Positions 4,881-63,678 of a stretch of DNA of 64,000 bases are shown here, piece after piece. The notes beneath the pieces were generated by a model. That model made no database searches and was not told the origin of the DNA. It saw nothing but the letters and a program-made list of their open reading frames with translations. The translations under genes were made by a program, and so were the position numbers. Every line of letters starts with the position of its first letter. The first letter of the stretch is position 1. The stretch covers positions 8,752 to 72,751 of the forward strand of contig JBIIMF010000001.1 in the NCBI GenBank assembly GCA_044338135.1, in the 5' to 3' direction. This DNA comes from Ilumatobacteraceae bacterium. GTDB lineage: Bacteria > Actinomycetota > Acidimicrobiia > Acidimicrobiales > Ilumatobacteraceae.

Positions 4881-6218
4881 ATGAAGCGTCATTACATCCT
4901 TCCCGCACTCGCCATTTTGGTCATGCCGTTAGCTATTGGTTCAAGCCCACTGCTCGCATCTGGCGGTGGATCTCACGAAGATGAAACCGAAACCACAGAA
5001 GTGCCGCAGTCGTCAATTCCTCGTCGTGACAGAAACCGAAATAGCGTGCCTCCGACAACCATCGAAGTCGAATCAGAAGATTCTGATTCTGCAACACCGA
5101 CGACATCAGAACCACGTCGCCAACGGACGAATACTTCAACGACAACATCAATCCCAACAGATGTCATTGTCGGGTTACCAATTACTGAGTCTGACAATGA
5201 TTCTCACGATGGGTCAGAAGATGAATCTCACGATGATTCACATGATGAAAACAAATCAGAGACGCCAGAAGGCGAACACAACAATCGTGGAAATCGAATC
5301 GGAGACATTGCTCGTAATATTGCGCGCGCAACGACCGCTTTGAATTCTTTGCCCGCGAGCGAGGCGCGTGACGCTGCGCTCGAGGCACTGCTTGCGCTAC
5401 AAGCACGTGTTGATGCGGGTGAAGTTATTCCAGCCGCGGATGTTCAAGCAATTTTTGACAATGTGGCTGCATTGGTTTTTATCCGTATTGGTGGAGGAAA
5501 TCATCGCGGCGACTCCCCAGTAACCGGTGGAGTGCCAGATACTCAGAAGATTTCGCGTATGAGTGGCTCGGTGACCGAAGCTATACGACTTCTCGAAGGT
5601 AATACTTCTGATGCTGCAGTTGCGGCGATTACTGCATTGCAGTCTGTGAAGGCCTCACTCGATGCAGGAACACTTCCCGATCATGACGTTTTTGAAGAAG
5701 CAATGGATCTTGCCAAAGACGCACTAGCCGATATGCCAACAGCTCGCGCTTCAGTCACGTTGGCGGGTGTGATTGCTGCTGTCGAAGCATCGGATGCATC
5801 CGATGAAGTCAAGACCCAGTTGCTAGCGGTATTGCGTGCGGCTCAAGATCAAGTCCTTGCCGATCCCACTGCTGATGCTCAACAGATCGTGCGCGCTGCA
5901 TTGCAACAAGTTCGCGATGCCCGAATCGCCGCGGTGGTGCAGCGGATGATTGAGATTGTTGGACGCCTTGAAGTTGCTGCCAACACTCAAGGAAACTCCG
6001 ATGCGCTATTGCTTCTGGCTCAGGTGCGTTCGTTGCTCCAACCTGGTGATGGCTCATTGCCGGCTCGCGATCAATTGCACAACGCTCGTCGCATCTTGCT
6101 TGATGTGCTTGATCTCTTGACCCCTGTCACTGCGCCTACGACGACAATTCCTGACACGACGGTCCCAGACACGACAATTCCTGACACGACGACCCCTGAC
6201 ACAACGATTGCTCCTTAG
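4881..6218 (+). CDS. Secreted repetitive protein of unknown function
   Basis: Signal peptide MKRHYILPALAILVMPLAIGSSPLLASG. Acidic/His-rich block DNDSHDGSEDESHDDSHDE, an Ala-rich helical body, and C-terminal TTIPDTTVPDTTIPDTTTPDTT repeats encoded by 15-nt tandem repeats. Confidence 0.6.
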   Translation: MKRHYILPALAILVMPLAIGSSPLLASGGGSHEDETETTEVPQSSIPRRDRNRNSVPPTTIEVESEDSDSATPTTSEPRRQRTNTSTTTSIPTDVIVGLPITESDNDSHDGSEDESHDDSHDENKSETPEGEHNNRGNRIGDIARNIARATTALNSLPASEARDAALEALLALQARVDAGEVIPAADVQAIFDNVAALVFIRIGGGNHRGDSPVTGGVPDTQKISRMSGSVTEAIRLLEGNTSDAAVAAITALQSVKASLDAGTLPDHDVFEEAMDLAKDALADMPTARASVTLAGVIAAVEASDASDEVKTQLLAVLRAAQDQVLADPTADAQQIVRAALQQVRDARIAAVVQRMIEIVGRLEVAANTQGNSDALLLLAQVRSLLQPGDGSLPARDQLHNARRILLDVLDLLTPVTAPTTTIPDTTVPDTTIPDTTTPDTTIAP

Positions 6219-6262: not shown

Positions 6263-6703
6263 GTGGATCAGTATTCAACTCAATTGCTCGAGACATCAGA
6301 CCGAGTTGTGGCCAAGTGGGCCGAACGTTTGATCCGACGACATTGTGACGAACACAAGATCTCCGACCCTCAGGTCGGAGATCTTTGTATGTCCGTGATC
6401 GCTCAAGTATCGGCCGAGGTCCACGCCAATTTGGTTGACCTGTTATCTCGAGATGTCTTTGAACAACGAACCAACCCGTTGGCAGTATTTCGTCAAGCAA
6501 CACGACCTGTCACCGAGTTGTTGACCAATCTCGGGTGTGCGCCAGTTGTTCGTGACGAATTCGATGAACGTTCATTCCCCGACGATGTGTATGGATTGAG
6601 CCCGGCAACTTGGGTCGATATTGACGAAGCACTTGTTGAGCCAGGCATCGAATGGGGGGCCTGGAAAGCAGCCACCGTCATGATGCGTAAGAAGAACCAA
6701 TAA
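6263..6703 (+). CDS. Hypothetical protein
   Basis: 146-codon ORF with a GTG start and no conflicting gene. No motif recognised. Confidence 0.4.
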   Translation: MDQYSTQLLETSDRVVAKWAERLIRRHCDEHKISDPQVGDLCMSVIAQVSAEVHANLVDLLSRDVFEQRTNPLAVFRQATRPVTELLTNLGCAPVVRDEFDERSFPDDVYGLSPATWVDIDEALVEPGIEWGAWKAATVMMRKKNQ

Positions 6704-6755: not shown

Positions 6756-9038
6756 ATGGAACGCCGCCAACAGGTTCTCGCTGACACCAAGTTACGCGGG
6801 GTGCGTTTGACTCACGCTTTGTGTGAAGCGACCGACGAGTGGATCCGTGAGGTTTGGACAAGTGCTTTCGAAGCCGTCAAAGTTTCGAAGCGAGTCGCGC
6901 TTGTTGCTGTTGGTGGCTACGGCCGAGGTGAGTTAGCGCCGTACAGCGACTTGGACATCATGTTGATACATGACGGCGAAAAGAAAATTGACGACCTTGC
7001 TTCAAAGATTTGGTATCCGATTTGGGACTCGGGTCTCAAACTTGGTCACTCAGTTTGCACGGTGAAGCAAGCAACCGAACTTGCAAAGTCAGAACTCGAT
7101 GCGGCGACGGCGTTATTGAGCGTTCGTCTTTTAGCTGGTGATGAATCGCTAGCGAATGAACTCAGTGCTGAAGGCGTGAAGACATGGAAAGCGGGGGCGT
7201 CAAATCGACTACCTCAACTGATGCAACGTGTTCGTGACCGCCAACAAGACAACGGCGAAGTTGCGTTCTTACTTGAGCCCAACCTTAAAGAGGGTTACGG
7301 CGGGCTTCGAGATATTCATGCATTGATTTGGGCCGAGGCTGCCGGAGTCGCGATATCGCGTTCAGATCGTGATGCACTTGATGCGGGTCGCGATGTGTTG
7401 ATGGCCGTACGGGTTGCGTTGCATCGACACGTGGGACGTGCAGTTGAAGTCATGCACCTCGAAGATCAAGATGCAGTGGCAAGTCTGTGCGGATATCGAA
7501 ATGCTGACGCGCTTGTTGCCGCACTTTCAAATGCTGGTCGGTCAGTTTCGTGGGTCGGTGACGAAGTATGGGCACGAGTTGCAGCCGCAAAAACAAAGCC
7601 TGTTGCCGATCAACTGCTGGCGCCTGGAGTGATCTTGCATCTAGGTGAGATTCATCTTGAAGAAACAGTTGATCCTGCGACCGATCCAACACTGTTGTTA
7701 CGCGTTGCGGCTTCGGCAGCCCGTCACAAGGCCCGCATCGACCGTCCAACGCTCGATCGTTTGGCGCAATCATGTCCTCCGATGCCGAGCCCATGGCCAG
7801 TAGGCGCGATTGACGACTTCGTTGGTTTGTTGTTGACAGCACACGATGCGATTCCGGTTCTTGAGGCCCTTGATCAACGCGGCTTGTGGGTGAAGGTTTT
7901 GCCCGAATGGGCACCGAACCGCAGTAAGCCACAACGCAATGCGTATCACCGCTTTACTGTTGATCGACACCTATGGGAAGCAACCGCGAACGCTGCAACA
8001 TGGGCCGATCGTGTTGCCCGCCCAGACTTGTTGGTGCTTGGTGCGCTCTTTCATGACATCGGCAAGGGTTATCCGGGAGACCACACCGAAGTTGGCGTCG
8101 CCATGGTTGAAAAAATCGGACCACGTCTTGGCTTGAATGCCGATGACACTCAAATGATTTGTGCGATGGTCAAGCATCACTTGCTCTTGCCCGATGTTGC
8201 AACACGACGCGACCTAGCCGATAGCGCCACGATCATGATGGTCGCTGACGAAGTTAAAACTCCTTTGGTGCTAGACCTTTTGCACGGCTTAACCGAAGCC
8301 GACAGTTTGGCGACAGGTACAGCTGCATGGGGCACTTGGAAAGCCGAACTCGTGGGCGACCTCGTGCGTCGCGTGCATCTTGTACTCGGCGGCGCCGAAG
8401 TTGAAGAAGCGCAGTGGCGACTTTTCCCCGACGCCGAAGTACTCGAGATGATGGCGGGCGGCACTGTGACATTTGGTCTCAGTGATGATTCAGTAACGGT
8501 TGTGAGTCCTGACCGACCAGGAACATTTAGCCGTGTTGCCGGAGTGCTGGCATTGCACGGACTCGGAGTCCTTGGTGCTCAGGCACATTCTGATGAACAG
8601 GGAATGGCTGCTTCACAATTCAGAGTGATCGTGCCAAGTCATGGTCCGATTGAATGGCAACCAATTGTTCAGAATCTAACGAGAGCCCTCAATGGAGAAT
8701 TGGCGATTGAGGCACGAATGGCTGAGCGTGCGAAAACTTATCGCCGAAAGCGTCGTTCGGCCGGAGAACTAGCCCCACCGCGCGTGACGTTCTTTGATGA
8801 AGCTTCATCTAATGCGACAGTTATTGAAGTGCGGGCCCCAGACCAACATGGCATCTTGCATCGCGTGACAAAAGCAATGGCCGAAGTTGGTCTCGATATT
8901 CGTCATGCCACCGTACAAACCATTGGCGATGAAGTTGTTGACGCCTTTTATGTTCGTACATCAAGTGGTTCAAAACTGACCGACAAATTTCATCGTCAAG
9001 AAGTTGAACGAGCCATTCTCTTCTCATTGGCCTCGTGA
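6756..9038 (+). CDS. glnD: [Protein-PII] uridylyl/adenylyl-transferase GlnD
   Basis: Nucleotidyltransferase motif GGYGRGELAPYSDLDIML, HD domain (FHDIGKG) and two C-terminal ACT-like segments. The 760-aa length is typical. Confidence 0.9.
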   Translation: MERRQQVLADTKLRGVRLTHALCEATDEWIREVWTSAFEAVKVSKRVALVAVGGYGRGELAPYSDLDIMLIHDGEKKIDDLASKIWYPIWDSGLKLGHSVCTVKQATELAKSELDAATALLSVRLLAGDESLANELSAEGVKTWKAGASNRLPQLMQRVRDRQQDNGEVAFLLEPNLKEGYGGLRDIHALIWAEAAGVAISRSDRDALDAGRDVLMAVRVALHRHVGRAVEVMHLEDQDAVASLCGYRNADALVAALSNAGRSVSWVGDEVWARVAAAKTKPVADQLLAPGVILHLGEIHLEETVDPATDPTLLLRVAASAARHKARIDRPTLDRLAQSCPPMPSPWPVGAIDDFVGLLLTAHDAIPVLEALDQRGLWVKVLPEWAPNRSKPQRNAYHRFTVDRHLWEATANAATWADRVARPDLLVLGALFHDIGKGYPGDHTEVGVAMVEKIGPRLGLNADDTQMICAMVKHHLLLPDVATRRDLADSATIMMVADEVKTPLVLDLLHGLTEADSLATGTAAWGTWKAELVGDLVRRVHLVLGGAEVEEAQWRLFPDAEVLEMMAGGTVTFGLSDDSVTVVSPDRPGTFSRVAGVLALHGLGVLGAQAHSDEQGMAASQFRVIVPSHGPIEWQPIVQNLTRALNGELAIEARMAERAKTYRRKRRSAGELAPPRVTFFDEASSNATVIEVRAPDQHGILHRVTKAMAEVGLDIRHATVQTIGDEVVDAFYVRTSSGSKLTDKFHRQEVERAILFSLAS

Positions 9039-9055: not shown

Positions 9056-9754
9056 ATGAGTGACGCGACACCAGCAGACTTCACCCGAGATTTAGTGCGG
9101 TGGAGCGAAACACTCGCTGGCATTGCCCGCACCGGTATGGGTTTCACGCAGAATTTGTATGAGCGTGAACGATATGAAGAAGTACTTCATGTAGCCGCTG
9201 ATATTAAGGCAGCTGCCGATGAAGCTTTAGAAGTGCGTCGCGAACAAGATCACTTTGTCCAAGAATGGATGGAATCTGTTGGCGAAGGTATCCCTGGGTA
9301 CGTCACACCGAAAGTAGCGATTGGCGCAATTGTCGGTAACGACGATGGCGAGATACTGCTGATGCAGCGAGCCGATTCTGGTATCTGGTTGTATCCGACC
9401 GGTTGGGCCGACGTTGGATATTCGGCAAGTGAAGTTGCGGTGAAAGAAGTCTTTGAAGAAACTGGTATCGAATGTGAGCCCGTGCAGTTGCTCGGCGTCT
9501 TTGACGGCCAGCGGATGGGCTTTAGTCGTTTCGGTATGTACATGTTGTTATTCCACTGTCGAGCAACCGGAGGAAGCTTGCAAGGTCATCCACTAGAAAC
9601 AAGTGGCCTTGGTTGGTTTGCGCATGACGCATTGCCGAGTGCGACTGCAGGAATCGAGTGGTGGGGCCAGATGGCATTTGCTGCAATTAATGGCGAACAA
9701 TCAATTGCGACATTTGACTCGCCGCGCTCGGCTGTGTGGCGTCAAGCCGATTGA
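9056..9754 (+). CDS. NUDIX hydrolase with N-terminal helical NUDIX-associated domain
   Basis: Nudix box GWADVGYSASEVAVKEVFEETGI preceded by a helical region of about 80 aa. Confidence 0.85.
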   Translation: MSDATPADFTRDLVRWSETLAGIARTGMGFTQNLYERERYEEVLHVAADIKAAADEALEVRREQDHFVQEWMESVGEGIPGYVTPKVAIGAIVGNDDGEILLMQRADSGIWLYPTGWADVGYSASEVAVKEVFEETGIECEPVQLLGVFDGQRMGFSRFGMYMLLFHCRATGGSLQGHPLETSGLGWFAHDALPSATAGIEWWGQMAFAAINGEQSIATFDSPRSAVWRQAD

Positions 9755-9764
9755 TGTGTTGAAA

Positions 9765-10736
9765 TCAGTCGTCGTGTTGACTGCGTAAGAACTGCTCAAC
9801 TTCTTCCATGAGTGCGTCACTGTCGACTGGCTCATCGGGAAGTGGTCCGCTTAACGGCGGAGCATCATCCATTCCTTCGAAACTCAGTTGATCGGGTGAT
9901 ACGCCGTAGGACGGCATGTCATCGTCTTCGTCGTAATCGTCTTCGTCGTAATCATCGTCGTCATCGCTTCGGTTTTCGAGGCGATCGAGATAGCGCGCCA
10001 TTGATGGATCATTACTGATCAGATCATCAATTTGTTCTTCGTATAGTGCAGCTTGAGCATCGAGCATCATGGTTGGAGCATCGCAACCAACAATTTCGGA
10101 AAGTCGTTCAATGAGGGCCGACGCTGCTTTGGGCGAAGGGATTTGTGCGGCGTATGCGGGAACCGCGGCCCACAGTGATGCAGTTGAAAATCCGGCCGAG
10201 TGTGCAGTGTCATTGAGGACTCCAACAATTCCGGTTGGTCCTTCATAACGACTGCGTTGTAAATCGTGGGCGTCGATCAAGGCTTGATCGGTGGCAGTTC
10301 CGAGGACCTGTGTTTCGTGACGGTGGGGGACATCGGCCAAGAGTGCCCCGAGCGAGATGAAGGTCGATGCGTTGTATTCGCGTGCGACGCCAACTACTTG
10401 TTCACAAAAGAGTTTCCAACGCAACGCTGGTTCGGGCCCGAGCACAAGAATCAGATCGACGTCGTCACTAGTAACACTCCAGAGACTGACGGTGGGCCAC
10501 ACGATGTGCCGTGTTGAATCGCTGTTCAAACGAACATGTGGACGAATGGTTGCAAAGTCAGTGAATTCTTCAGGGTTGATTTCAGCGAGAGGTGCTGCGC
10601 CTAAATTCTCAACGAGGTGTTTAACAGCAGTGCTCGCGGCGTCGGCAGCATCGTTCCAGCCAGTGAAGGCGGCGATGACATGGGGCCGACGCAGTTCAGG
10701 TCGGCGGATCCATCGGACGTGCTCGAGATCAGCCAT
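9765..10736 (-). CDS. PAC2 (proteasome assembly chaperone 2-like) family protein with acidic tail
   Basis: N-terminal HVIAAFTGWNDAADAAS and overall similarity to actinobacterial PAC2-family proteins. C-terminal DDDDDYDEDDYDEDDD encoded by an 18-nt repeat. Confidence 0.7.
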   Translation of the reverse strand: MADLEHVRWIRRPELRRPHVIAAFTGWNDAADAASTAVKHLVENLGAAPLAEINPEEFTDFATIRPHVRLNSDSTRHIVWPTVSLWSVTSDDVDLILVLGPEPALRWKLFCEQVVGVAREYNASTFISLGALLADVPHRHETQVLGTATDQALIDAHDLQRSRYEGPTGIVGVLNDTAHSAGFSTASLWAAVPAYAAQIPSPKAASALIERLSEIVGCDAPTMMLDAQAALYEEQIDDLISNDPSMARYLDRLENRSDDDDDYDEDDYDEDDDMPSYGVSPDQLSFEGMDDAPPLSGPLPDEPVDSDALMEEVEQFLRSQHDD

Positions 10737-10814: not shown

Positions 10815-11897
10815 TTAGAGGCGTGGTCGGATAATGAATTGACCAAATCCGCCCTCGCCAGTGACCTCATCAACGAGGTTGCTGTCGTACACCTCATTGG
10901 GTCCCTGCATGAGGTCGTACTCGGTTGCGCCAGCAGGCGTTGTCACCAAAGTCCAGGCTTGGCGCTTATAGGTCAAGTTCTGTGGGTGCAGTCGATGCGC
11001 TTCTTTCCACCACTTCACTGCCGTCTCGTTCTCGCCAGTGCGATGGAAGTATTCGCCAAGTTCGAAACATGCCGTGGCACGAGCCTCGTTATCAGATCGT
11101 GGTTGGCTGCGTGCGATGACTTCATCGGGAGTCAAGGCGAATGCGGAAGTCGAACCTTTTTGTACCCAGTCTAAAATGGCCTCACGGTAGGCCTCGCCGT
11201 CATCGGGAATCGCTTTAACGGCGTGCATCATTTTGTTGAGTTGTTCAGGAAGGCCCTCGGGTATTTCCATGTCGCGCAAAGGACTTCGTTCGATGGAAGC
11301 ACCTTCGGCTGGACGTACCAAGTTTCCGTCTTCATCAATCCAAGCAGCCATCGGGATATTGGTGAATCCAAAAAGCGAATTGGTGATGTGGAGAGTGTCA
11401 ACCAAACTTGGGTGATTTGGATTGGCGAGATCGTTCCAAGGTTTTGCTAAAGCAGGATCGATATCAAGGGCAACGGTGACAACAGTTGCGCCGAACTTGG
11501 CGATTTCTTCGTTAAGTGCTTGCCACCCGGGCAAGCTAGAGCGACAGCCTCAATAACTAGACCACGCGACAAGGACTACTTTCTTGCCGCGAAGTGATGA
11601 GAGCTTGAATGGTGTTCCGTCAAAAGTTTTTAACTCGGGGTCGGCTGCAACTGCAGTACTGAGCGACTTGCCCGACAAGGTTGCTGAGCCGAGCGCCCAT
11701 ACGCCATGTTCGATGTCTTGGACAATCGGCATGCCTAACTTTTGCGCTGCAACCGCGACATCAATCATTCCGTCAGATGACAACGCACCTGGGGCGGGGA
11801 CACAGACTTCGCCTCGGCAGAGTCCTTCGGGCTTTGGATACCAGTCGGTTGCATGGGCGAATGCTTCAGCGGTTGTGCGAAGTTCGGTCAAGATCAT
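10815..11897 (-). CDS. ResA/TlpA-like thioredoxin-fold protein with in-frame TGA (candidate selenocysteine) at the redox motif; alternatively a pseudogene
   Basis: ORFs 11550..11897 and 10815..11534 share a frame and are separated only by the TGA at 11550-11552. Read-through gives ...KKVVLVAWSSY-U-GCRSSLPGWQALNEE..., and the thioredoxin-fold continues downstream (VVTVALD, IPMAAWIDEDGNLVRP). The 'M' of the second ORF is an in-frame TTG. Confidence 0.55.
11518..11536 (-). promoter_or_regulatory. Candidate bacterial SECIS stem-loop
   Basis: The mRNA can fold GCUUGCC-CGGGU-GGCAAGC (7-bp stem, 5-nt loop containing G and U). The stem starts 13 nt and the loop 20 nt after the UGA at 11552-11550. 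Confidence 0.35.
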
Positions 11898-11935: not shown

Positions 11936-13261
11936 TTAGCCAAGACTGCGTACTTTCAGGGCATGAGCCTTCTCGTGAAACTTGGCCCTGATCAGGTCTT
12001 CGTCGACGCCGAGCACCCGGCCGTTCTCCATAATGAATTGACCGTTCACGATGGTGTGTCGAACATCGTCAGCACGTGTCGAATACACCAGTGCCGACAT
12101 GGGGTCATACACGGGCTGGGCATGGGCAGTATCAAGATTGACCACGATCACATCGGCCTTCGCGCCAACTTCAAGTCGCCCAGTGTCGGGACGATTCATC
12201 GCGAGAGCACCTTGGTATGTGGACATTTCTAAAAGTTCGTTGATTTTCAAGAATTCAACATCGCCGGTATTGGTCTTATGGATCAACCCAGCGAATTTCA
12301 TTTCTTGGAACATGTCACTCGCATTGTGACTCGCTGGTCCATCGGTTGCGAGACCAACGGTGATGCCCGCTTCGCGAACTTGGCGGAGCGGCATGGTGCC
12401 CGAACCTAACTTGGCATTGCAGACGGGACAGTGGCCGATCTTTGTTCCGGTTTCGGCCAACAGTTTGATATCGGTGGCATCAAGTTGCGAGCAATGTCCA
12501 GCAGTGACATCGGGGCCAAGGAAACCAAGTGAGTGCAACCACTGGACCGGACGAAGACCGTAGGTCTCAAGGCAATATTCAACTTCTTGCATACCTTCGG
12601 ATAAGTGCGTGTGGATAGGTACTTGATGCGCGTCAGCAACTTCACGACAAAGTTTCCACATTTCGACTCCACATGAATAAACCGCATGAGGTGACAATGC
12701 TATTCGCAAAAGATCATCGCGGGTTTTGTGATGTTGGGCTGCAAGATTGCCAAAGTTGTTGATGGTTTTCCACGAGTAATCAGTAATTGATGCGTAGAGG
12801 CCACGATCGGCGAACCCGTATCCGAGTGTTGCGCGAAGTGGGATCTCTTTGAGTGCTTCAATTTGTGGTTCAACAGCGTACGCATCGAAATGTTCATTGA
12901 ACGAAGTAATACCCGAACGGGCCATCTCAACGAGACCACACATGCTTGCCCAGTAGAGGGTTTCTTCATCAAAGTTCTGTTTGAGCTTCCACATGGTTTG
13001 CAACCATTCGAAAAGCAAAACGTCTTCGAGTAAACCACGCAAGAGCAGATTTGAAGCAATGTGGGTATGGCTGTTGCAGAAGCCTGGCATGACTGCGCAG
13101 TTGCGAGCATCGATGACTTTTCTTGCTCCACTGATATCAACTTGATCGGCAGAACCAACTGCAGTGATGGCATTGCCCGACATGGTGATGACACCGTTGT
13201 TGATCACAGGCTTCCCCGCCATGGGGAGCACAGTTCCATTGATAATCGCGATATCAGTCAT
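11936..13261 (-). CDS. Amidohydrolase (ATZ/TRZ, MTA/SAH or guanine deaminase-like metal-dependent hydrolase)
   Basis: Metal ligand motifs NSHTHIASN, HTHLSEG, GHC and ATDG in the order typical of this superfamily. Confidence 0.8.
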   Translation of the reverse strand: MTDIAIINGTVLPMAGKPVINNGVITMSGNAITAVGSADQVDISGARKVIDARNCAVMPGFCNSHTHIASNLLLRGLLEDVLLFEWLQTMWKLKQNFDEETLYWASMCGLVEMARSGITSFNEHFDAYAVEPQIEALKEIPLRATLGYGFADRGLYASITDYSWKTINNFGNLAAQHHKTRDDLLRIALSPHAVYSCGVEMWKLCREVADAHQVPIHTHLSEGMQEVEYCLETYGLRPVQWLHSLGFLGPDVTAGHCSQLDATDIKLLAETGTKIGHCPVCNAKLGSGTMPLRQVREAGITVGLATDGPASHNASDMFQEMKFAGLIHKTNTGDVEFLKINELLEMSTYQGALAMNRPDTGRLEVGAKADVIVVNLDTAHAQPVYDPMSALVYSTRADDVRHTIVNGQFIMENGRVLGVDEDLIRAKFHEKAHALKVRSLG

Positions 13262-55525: not shown

Positions 55526-57421
55526 CTAGATCTTGAGGGCAGCGCGACGGGCTTCGAGAACTGCTTCAAGGATTGTGCGCGGCGCAACACAGTCGCCAAT
55601 TTGAAGCGCACCATCTATCGGGTCTGTGGGCAATCTGAAGCCAGCATCAACCACAGCCGCACATTCGAGCTCGGTCAGTTCACCCGAAAAGCGATCTTGG
55701 ACACGTACAACAAAATTCATGGCTCGCTTTTCAACTGCACGAACAACACTGCGTCGTTGAACGCGAGCGCCACGTTGAGCAAGTCGAACGTTGGCTGGTG
55801 CAAGATCGCCTGTACGAGATAATTCGTTACCTGCAATATTGTCGGGTGTCACCAAGATTGCTCGTTCGCCAAGTTCTTCAGCGAGCGAAACGCCAATGGG
55901 TCCGCCGATCGGATCAAGAATGATGACGACCCCAGATTCGGGAAGCGACAATTTGCCGCAACGAACGTCGGCGATATCGAGCACTTCTGCCCCGACACCA
56001 ACCTCGTATTCAGCAAACCCACGCTGAGCTCCTGTGGCTTGAACGACAACCTGCGATGGGTTGGTAGAAGCATTCTTAAATTCGCTATTAAGTTCAACCG
56101 TGACACCAAGGCGTTCAATTTCTGACTTCAACCATGAGATCAGCGGTTGCCCAGGTCCGGCGACGGCAGCAATGCCGCCGATGTTTGACGCCTTTTCAAC
56201 GATGGTGACTACGTGACCTCGTAATGTCGCGACTCGTGCAGTTTCAAGTCCGGCGATACCGGCACCTATGACAGTGATTGTTCGCGGCGACTTTGACGAC
56301 GCATACCAATCGGGATCTTGTAACTCGTGGCCCGATGTTGGTTCGCTGACACAAGTCACGATTGGGTTGCGAGCATCGCGCACTTGGCAGGTTTGATTAC
56401 AGCGGATACACGGACGAATCTGTGCTTGCTGATCATTTTTGATTTTGTGTACGAGTTCAGGGTCGGCGATTTGTGCGCGAGTCATTTCAACTGCGTCGCA
56501 CACGCCGTCGCTCATTGCCCATTCGGCTTGACCTACTTCAACTATTGAACCTTGCAAGAAAACTGCGACATGAGCAGGCAGTGCCGAGCGGATAGAACGA
56601 CACACATCAATGTTGAAGCCAGTTGGTTCATGAAAATCTGGACGTGTCTTTTCTACGGAGAAAATTGACCCACGAACCACAACGACATAATCAATTCCGA
56701 GTCCGCATAATTCGCGAGCGATTTCTGGCGCCATCTCGGGTGTGATACCAGCCCACGGTGCAAGTTCGTCACACGACAATCGCAAACCAATCACAGCATC
56801 TGCACGTACTGCAAGTGCCGCGCTCTTAACCGCATGAACTACTTGTCGCGCGAAAAGCAGACGATCGGCATATTCGTCACCACGTTGGTTAGTGAGTCCA
56901 GATAAAAACTGCCGAACCAAACTGTGTTGTCCAGCGTTGATTTCGACGCCGTCGCACCCAGCGCTGATGGCGATGCGAGTGGCAGCGCCAAAACCTTCGA
57001 TGACTGCAACGATGTCTTCGTGTTCCATCCATTTGGGAACTTCACGAGAGTTGACTTCAGGTACGCGCGACGGAGCCCACAGCGGTTGTTGCGAGTAAGC
57101 CGACGAACCTTGTCCTCCGGCATGATTGAGCGAAGCAATGACAAGCGCACCATGGCGATGGCACGCCTCGGCAATATCGGCCCATCCATCGGCACAACGA
57201 CTTGCGAGAGGAGCGCGTTCGTAAGGCCAGTCACTGTCGTGAACACTTGCACCTTCGATAACGATGGTGCCGCAGCCACCTTTGGCGCGACGTTCGTAGT
57301 AGGCGACATGGTCGGGCGAGAATGAACGTTCGTCGTTGCCTAAGTTCGTGACATGAGGTCCGAACATCACTCGATTAGGAGTGGTTCGCGAACCGAGCGA
57401 CAGCGGCTGAACTAGTGACAT
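55526..57421 (-). CDS. FadH/OYE family NADH:flavin oxidoreductase (2,4-dienoyl-CoA reductase-like; mycofactocin-system associated type)
   Basis: N-terminal OYE TIM barrel, 4Fe-4S motif CIRCNQTCQVRD...C, and C-terminal Rossmann VIGAGIAGLE. Immediately downstream of mftC. Confidence 0.8.
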   Translation of the reverse strand: MSLVQPLSLGSRTTPNRVMFGPHVTNLGNDERSFSPDHVAYYERRAKGGCGTIVIEGASVHDSDWPYERAPLASRCADGWADIAEACHRHGALVIASLNHAGGQGSSAYSQQPLWAPSRVPEVNSREVPKWMEHEDIVAVIEGFGAATRIAISAGCDGVEINAGQHSLVRQFLSGLTNQRGDEYADRLLFARQVVHAVKSAALAVRADAVIGLRLSCDELAPWAGITPEMAPEIARELCGLGIDYVVVVRGSIFSVEKTRPDFHEPTGFNIDVCRSIRSALPAHVAVFLQGSIVEVGQAEWAMSDGVCDAVEMTRAQIADPELVHKIKNDQQAQIRPCIRCNQTCQVRDARNPIVTCVSEPTSGHELQDPDWYASSKSPRTITVIGAGIAGLETARVATLRGHVVTIVEKASNIGGIAAVAGPGQPLISWLKSEIERLGVTVELNSEFKNASTNPSQVVVQATGAQRGFAEYEVGVGAEVLDIADVRCGKLSLPESGVVIILDPIGGPIGVSLAEELGERAILVTPDNIAGNELSRTGDLAPANVRLAQRGARVQRRSVVRAVEKRAMNFVVRVQDRFSGELTELECAAVVDAGFRLPTDPIDGALQIGDCVAPRTILEAVLEARRAALKI

Positions 57422-63380: not shown

Positions 63381-63423
63381 AACTTGATGTTGAGTGTGTA
63401 GCACTAAGTGCTACACTTGCCAA

Positions 63424-63678
63424 ATGGCACAAGTAATTTCTCAAAGAGAGTTCAGGAATGATTCCGCTGAAATCATGCGTCGGCTTGATCTGGGCGAAAG
63501 TTTCATCATCACTCGTAATGGTCAAAGTGTTGGAGAACTGACGCCACTTCGCCGACAACGATTTGTGTCAGTCGATCATTTTCTTGCAACGATGCAAAAT
63601 GCTCCCGTGATTGATTCCGCAAGATTTCGCTCTGATCTTGATTCAGTGCTTGACCAAGACCTGATGCCTCTTGCCTGA
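63424..63678 (+). CDS. Type II antitoxin (Phd/YefM-like)
   Basis: MAQVISQREFRNDSAEIMRRLDLGESFIITRNGQSVGELTPL. The downstream PIN gene overlaps its end. Confidence 0.75.
   Translation: MAQVISQREFRNDSAEIMRRLDLGESFIITRNGQSVGELTPLRRQRFVSVDHFLATMQNAPVIDSARFRSDLDSVLDQDLMPLA

Follow-up and report, generated by a model that had tools for sequence, protein, structure and literature searches.

The minus strand at 10815-11897 of the window, the 64-kb stretch of DNA that was analyzed, very probably carries one genuine Sec-decoded gene for a soluble three-domain selenoprotein of 360 residues, belonging to the WAxxUGC or UGC-containing TlpA-ResA-like family. Its host is a freshwater bacterium of Ilumatobacteraceae type within the Acidimicrobiia. 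The features of the gene are listed below.

10815-11897, minus strand, predicted selenoprotein coding sequence of 360 residues and a TAA stop with one in-frame UGA, recognized by its single frame, the NF041054 match, and dN/dS

11550-11552, minus strand, UGA codon, predicted Sec residue 116, recognized by the conserved TGA, the TGC in Cys forms, and the profile alignment to 3kcm

11518-11536, minus strand, bSECIS-type hairpin with the 7-bp stem GCUUGCC/GGCAAGC (11530-11536 and 11518-11524) and the apical loop CGGGU (11525-11529)

The ORF and translation check returned one minus-strand frame of 360 codons over 10815-11897, whose 360-residue translation has a single internal stop, the TGA at 11550-11552, as its sole interruption (...GKKVVLVAWSSY-stop-GCRSSLPGWQALNEE...), and read-through across this codon gives ...VVLVAWSSY-U-GCRSSLPGWQ.... 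The sequence-only reading of this DNA had described two same-frame minus-strand ORFs, 11550..11897 (115 aa) and 10815..11534 (239 aa), split by the lone TGA and with a TTG 15 nt further on; these coordinates were confirmed, and the TTG at 11532-11534 is the apparent start of the 239-aa ORF. Automated callers do split the gene, as that reading had expected, and in each contig examined, the public JGI calls list a 115-aa and a 239-aa ORF, neither with a domain hit. The dN/dS ratio (Nei-Gojobori) was 0.17 for the part before the TGA, 0.11 for the part after it, and 0.13 for the first five codons past the TGA, values that point to purifying selection on both halves of 10815-11897.

Whether homologues hold Cys or TGA at this column was a check proposed in the sequence-only reading. 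The TGA was kept at the Sec column in all 112 loci that cover it (33/33 from genomes and 79/79 from metagenomes, 49 to 100% identity), with no other frame disruption in any of them. The genome loci were collected in a one-genome-per-species scan, which gave 33 loci with 59 to 100% identity, all from freshwater Acidimicrobiia or Ilumatobacteraceae-type MAGs, and one of these encodes exactly the window protein. Another 80 loci, with identity down to 49%, came from a metagenome scan, and the same TGA was present in more than 20 further JGI metagenome contigs. In full-length database homologues with 45 to 56% identity, the column is occupied by Cys (WAS[WY]CGC); 25 such Cys-form homologues were found, none with Trp or Gly in this position, and the codon was TGC in all three that were checked on DNA (L114, L115, and L116).

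The motif in the relatives is W-[A/S]-x-[Y/W/F]-U-G-C, with W-S-S-Y-[TGA]-G-C in the window, Ser replacing Ala in its clade. The U/C-x-C spacing was found in every aligned family member, x being G except for S in L105. In a midpoint-rooted neighbor-joining tree of 91 Sec and 25 Cys forms, which is indicative only as the sampling favored relatives of the Sec-type query, the Cys forms were nested within Sec clades with at least four changes, and the root state was inferred as Sec. In this gathered sample, Sec looks like the ancestral state, from which Cys seems to have arisen at least three to four times.

The hairpin GCUUGCC-CGGGU-GGCAAGC was located at 11536-11518, where the sequence-only reading had placed a 7-bp hairpin, its stem starting 13 nt and its loop 20 nt past the UGA; the stem is a perfect 7 bp. 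The published bSECIS criteria are a loop of 3 to 9 nt, a stem of 4 to 16 bp, and a G in the first two loop positions (PMC13188914), together with a distance of 16 to 37 nt from the UGA and an energy of ≤ -7.5 kcal/mol (PMC13188914, 2026 review). All of them describe the window hairpin, with its 5-nt loop CGGGU, G at loop position 2, 7-bp stem, 20-nt spacing, and -11.8 kcal/mol for the core. As a background rate, 17 of 2971 window TGA triplets (0.57%) precede a perfect stem with 7 bp or more whose loop and spacing obey the bSECIS rules, and only the one described here has long open frames on either side (119 and 244 codons). Neither the read-through ORF scan nor the hairpin-after-TGA scan returned a credible candidate for another selenoprotein gene in the window.

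The MFE fold of a 71-nt single sequence was no better than shuffles (z = 0.14) and chose other pairing. This single-sequence fold is uninformative, and the hairpin was therefore judged by comparison across homologues, with 94 distinct segments aligned without gaps, each comprising the UGA and 51 nt. The 7-bp helix was paired in 96% of cells, compared to 29 to 68% with the 3' arm slid by 1 to 3 columns. Compensatory changes were present at three pairs (C-G/U-A, C-G/G-C, and G-C/C-G; 16 cells in total), the observed covariation score was reached by none of 500 column shuffles, and RNAalifold gave the identical helix with no structure supplied. In all Sec-form variants, the 21-nt core had an energy between -8.2 and -15.3 kcal/mol, while the homologous segment in three Cys-form genes had only -1.5 to -5.6 kcal/mol. 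Judged from these predicted pairings and energies, the hairpin is kept in all TGA loci and degraded in the three Cys-form genes checked; its conservation in TGA homologues, which the sequence-only reading had also proposed to check, was found together with covariation. Synonymous variability was 0.26 to 0.31 over the hairpin codons compared to the gene mean of 0.49, and Pro123 was CCC and Gly124 was GGG in 29 of 30 sequences. The compensatory changes are mostly clade-inherited, with few independent events.

As in the Escherichia coli fdhF-type SECIS, the hairpin is part of the coding region and closely follows the UGA on its 3' side, and it shares with the bSECIS consensus the small apical loop with G then G and the 20 nt from the UGA to the loop. 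Its sequence does not resemble that of the E. coli elements, as is usual for bSECIS, and no bulged U was recognized in it. The Rfam search at gathering and permissive thresholds gave no match to a SECIS family. Rfam covers bacterial SECIS elements poorly, and a non-match is expected. The same limitation of Rfam for bacterial SECIS is reported in an Actinomarina preprint (10.64898/2026.04.03.716425).

The search for the Sec-decoding genes spanned the 64-kb window and ~0.8 Mb of homologous flanks rather than a whole genome. ARAGORN detected no tRNA-Sec in the window or in the 33 genome-collection loci, and selA, selB, and selD were detected neither in the window by NCBIfam scans of 20 window ORFs nor in the window and all loci by tblastn with E. 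coli SelA, SelB, and SelD. The genes selA, selB, selC, and selD are reported to be present in all 84 complete genomes of Actinomarinales, which is another order within Acidimicrobiia (preprint 10.64898/2026.04.03.716425). Since the Actinomarinales have the machinery and the family is curated as a selenoprotein, both of which are indirect indications, we infer Sec-decoding capacity for the organism.

If the TGA were a real stop, the 115-aa product would be made alone and the downstream part would be untranslated or started at the TTG, i.e., there would be two genes or a pseudogene. Two ORFs are indeed annotated by gene callers, and the TTG is available in the window 15 nt past the TGA; however, it is CTG in 22 of 30 relatives, and the first in-frame ATG, GTG, or TTG past the TGA varies between loci from +4 to +72 codons, so the downstream half has no conserved start of its own. 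The G-C-R directly 3' of the TGA, between it and any start, is nearly invariant as protein sequence with synonymous variation present, the dN/dS downstream is as low as 0.11, and in each of the Cys-form homologues the protein is encoded by one continuous ORF. Across 112 loci, a pseudogene would not have retained the identical stop while staying free of further lesions, and this explanation is extremely unlikely. An assembly or sequencing error that changed TGC or TGT to TGA has a negligible chance; a single base separates TGA from a Cys codon and nothing specific speaks for the error, which is already refuted by the identical TGA in 112 independent assemblies from many projects and in the JGI metagenome contigs.

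Read-through of the UGA could also proceed without Sec, by near-cognate insertion of Trp or Cys or under a lineage-wide reassignment of UGA, and the failure to find Sec machinery in the window and the homologous flanks would agree with this. Yet TGA is more frequent than either other stop codon at ordinary ORF ends in the window, where it terminates 20 of 50 greedy ORFs, and this excludes a reassigned code. The column holds Cys in homologues and never Trp or Gly, a hairpin that is conserved, covaries, and lies at the canonical distance of a SECIS has no role in leakiness, and the family is curated as a selenoprotein (NF041054; PMC13188914), leaving read-through without Sec very unlikely. Decoding of the UGA as Sec, proposed for this gene as a candidate in the sequence-only reading, is supported by the TGA in 112/112 loci, the TGC of the Cys forms, dN/dS, and the covarying hairpin.

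The protein, scored with U replaced by C, matched the NCBIfam model NF041054.1 "WAxxUGC_long" (ResA-like WAxxUGC motif-containing protein) with 455.5 bits compared to the cutoff of 300 (E = 1.3e-136), its residues 1-350 aligning to positions 1-345 of the 354 in the profile. The name "ResA-like WAxxUGC motif-containing protein," which the sequence-only reading had given, is thus real. Its suggestion that the local motif fits the name held for the U-G-C part and failed for the Ala, since the window protein and its close relatives have W-S-x-x-U-G-C and not W-A-x-x-U-G-C. Shared with NF041054 are the Sec position, the three-part architecture of ~355 residues, and the organism class, one named NCBI member being from Acidimicrobiia. 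The model also names Cys-form proteins, e.g., P0066 with the codon TGC. The family is curated as a selenoprotein in a review that gives MDE0950781.1 as the example sequence of the UGC family (PMC13188914). The gene is a member of this already catalogued selenoprotein family and is not new.

A 2008 GOS paper on the ocean-sampling selenoproteome described a "Prx-like (UGC-containing)" family (pfam00578) with 46 Sec sequences and 855 Cys homologues, which was more abundant in non-marine samples. The UGC motif with one Sec, the pfam00578 (AhpC-TSA) match, and the many Cys homologues are shared with the family described here, and the non-marine enrichment agrees with the relatives found, all of which are from freshwater. 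Judged from motif, domain, and habitat, the NF041054 family is probably the 2008 "Prx-like (UGC-containing)" family. A literature search for "WAxxUGC" found no paper. To our knowledge, the family has never been studied biochemically.

Three domains were delimited in the protein.

11673-11897, minus strand, N-terminal alpha/beta domain, residues 1-75, with the invariant C27-x4-C32 and an AF2 pLDDT of ~90

11289-11648, minus strand, thioredoxin-fold (ResA/TlpA-like) domain, residues 84-203, with the site U116-G-C118-R119, from Pfam, the PDB profile, and Foldseek

10923-11246, minus strand, C-terminal helical domain, residues ~218-325, from weak TPR hits, invariant columns, and AF2 helices

The central domain was matched by Pfam Redoxin and AhpC-TSA over residues 84-203. 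The N-terminal domain had no Pfam hit, and a fold search of the PDB with it gave nothing significant (best E = 1.0). In the C-terminal domain, one TPR-like unit was delimited at ~residues 274-311, with a weak Pfam TPR hit near 274-307, and the motif T-Y-K-R-Q-A-W at residues 309-315 (window 10953-10973) is invariant. Structures were modelled for the Cys homologue P0006, which is 55% identical (AlphaFold2 pLDDT 86.7, pTM 0.84), and for the exact N-terminal ORF of the window. In Foldseek against the PDB, the central domain alone matched ResA, DsbE/CcmG, and TlpA with a target-normalized TM of 0.70 to 0.78 (0.72 to 0.78 for ResA), ~20% identity, an rmsd of ~2 Å, and a query-normalized TM of ~0.3. 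The PDB sequence profile hit ResA, TlpA, and DsbE with E values of 1e-13 to 1e-17 (best 2.9e-17), and WaswcG.cR was placed opposite WATWCPpCR in the alignment to 3kcm. As WASW-[U/C]-G-·-C-R is thus aligned with WATW-C-P-P-C-R, Sec would take the place of the nucleophilic Cys on the N-terminal side, with its partner Cys one residue closer than in C-x-x-C.

The central thioredoxin fold and the W-x-x-W-C context of the nucleophilic residue are shared with ResA, TlpA, and CcmG (DsbE), from which the window protein differs by U-x-C in place of C-x-x-C, i.e., a one-residue deletion, and by the N-terminal CxxxxC and C-terminal TPR-like domains that are absent from them. No transmembrane or signal segment was predicted, the maximum 19-residue Kyte-Doolittle hydropathy being 1.31 compared to the usual threshold of 1.6. 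Whereas ResA, TlpA, and CcmG are extracytoplasmic, the window protein has a folded alpha/beta domain at its N terminus and neither membrane anchor nor signal peptide; from its sequence it is, unlike them, most likely cytoplasmic.

Two other thioredoxin-fold assignments were set aside. The score of PF00578 (AhpC/TSA) was 36.5 bits compared to a gathering threshold of 26, and the peroxiredoxin motif P-x-x-x-T/S-x-x-C(U) is missing, position -7 being Leu and not Pro and position -3 Ala in most members. For glutathione peroxidase, PF00255 reached 17.6 bits compared to a cutoff of 27, and the best structural matches were ResA and TlpA, not GPx.

By the mechanism that is standard in bacteria, the UGA codon (11550-11552) would be read as selenocysteine and not as a stop, with the hairpin acting as a bacterial SECIS. 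By analogy with the established pathway, the hairpin would bind SelB-GTP-Sec-tRNASec and deliver selenocysteine to the ribosome for selenium insertion. Homology to ResA and TlpA suggests that Sec116, at the site of their nucleophilic Cys, would attack its substrate, a disulfide or an oxidant, and that Cys118 would then resolve the Se-S or Se-OH intermediate, the chemistry yielding an intramolecular selenenylsulfide across the U-G-C turn, which would be one residue shorter than C-x-x-C. Candidate roles of the C27/C32 pair and the C-terminal TPR-like domain are the relay of electrons and the binding of a partner.

It is possible, though rather doubtful, that the family is a distinct cytoplasmic selenoenzyme and not a ResA-like disulfide reductase. 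This is suggested because the selenenylsulfide centre at U-G-C, with one residue fewer than C-x-x-C, would be strained, because the N-terminal domain with the invariant CxxxxC has no solved structural relative, and because a TPR-like, putatively partner-binding domain with TYKRQAW is combined with a conserved linkage to a PAC2-family gene.

For annotation, the gene is a clear example of one redox selenoenzyme that appears in standard gene calls as two hypothetical ORFs lacking domain hits. The host belongs to an abundant lineage of freshwater actinobacteria, so the use of selenium in this lineage is under-reported. Little is added to the catalogue by the gene as such, and the interest lies in the role of a widespread, Sec-dominated family, the points of functional interest being the shortened U-x-C centre, the two uncharacterized accessory domains, the PAC2 linkage, and the apparent Sec ancestry.

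The neighbors of the gene were PAC2-family, SCO6745-family, Nudix, GlnD, and amidohydrolase genes, of which the following two were delimited in the window.

9765-10736, minus strand, PAC2 (proteasome-assembly-chaperone family) gene, 78 nt downstream, from TIGR00162 and PF09754

13289-14191, minus strand, SCO6745-family (HTH_67) gene, upstream, from NF047719 (231.7 bits compared to the cutoff of 120)

The PAC2-family gene was the most conserved neighbor, located directly downstream on the same strand in 61 of the 77 loci with room for it, and is probably co-transcribed with the selenoprotein gene. In 50 loci, the SCO6745-family gene was located upstream of the selenoprotein gene in the same orientation, and an amidohydrolase gene (11936-13261) separates the two only in close relatives of the window (14 loci). 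Unlike the context of ResA, TlpA, and CcmG, the window locus has no cytochrome c maturation or Sco/CoxB genes nearby. Two more distant Cys-form genes (L114 and L116) were found in another context, between Polyketide_cyc2 and PhyH genes.

Synonymous variability in the selenoprotein gene falls to a second low of 0.25-0.30, compared to a mean of 0.49, at window positions ~10866-10898 on the minus strand, spanning residues 334-344 (NEVYDSNLVDE). The dip is close to the 3' end of the gene, with the PAC2 start codon following ~130-160 nt downstream, and could mark an RNA element or a promoter within the gene. Among the database homologues, P0025 (526 aa) joins a Cys-form member and a PAC2 domain, and the sequence between the two contains frame-scrambled stretches. 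The fusion itself appears to be an artefact of assembly or frameshifting; the protein shows that the PAC2 linkage reaches as far as the nearest Cys forms.

At the Sec column, the gene for the homologue P0066 (L114:1314-2384, GCA_035996165.1) carries TGC, encoding Cys. The NCBI product name of this protein is 'ResA-like WAxxUGC motif-containing protein', and the WAxxUGC family name is spreading onto Cys forms. Another homologue, P0020, has Ser in the same column (WASYSGC) and a scrambled C-terminus, so this copy has probably been mutated or frameshifted. Further active-site variants were U-S-C in locus L105 and, in the clade of locus L081, U-G-C-S in place of U-G-C-R.

Seven of the homologous loci (L009, L013, L014, L029, L030, L032, and L033) bear the GenBank label 'uncultured Bifidobacterium sp.' or 'Bifidobacterium breve'. 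Each of these contigs carries the Acidimicrobiia-type selenoprotein gene together with its syntenic neighbours, and they almost certainly belong to freshwater MAGs that were given the wrong taxonomic name.

Other features of the window were as follows.

Window features outside the selenoprotein and PAC2 genes
~6340-6372, read on the minus strand: perfect 13-bp inverted repeat AAGATCTCCGACC-TGAG-GGTCGGAGATCTT, intergenic, between genes 4881-6218 and 6756-9038
6756-9038, plus strand: GlnD-type uridylyltransferase with HD and ACT domains (PF08335)
9056-9754, plus strand: Nudix hydrolase
55526-57421, minus strand: mycofactocin-system FadH/OYE family oxidoreductase 1 (TIGR03996, 689.7 bits against a cutoff of 627.9)
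63394-63675, plus strand: Phd/YefM-type antitoxin-like ORF

The GlnD-type and Nudix genes lie downstream of the selenoprotein gene on the opposite strand, with homologues at that place in 35 and 47 loci, respectively, and the inverted repeat looks like a terminator-type hairpin. The TIGR03996 match at 55526-57421 suggests the presence of a mycofactocin system in the organism. In related contigs, L119 (2143-2825) among them, a PhdYeFM antitoxin and PIN toxin pair was found, with an MFS transporter gene on one side and a flavin-monooxygenase-like gene (PF00743) on the other.
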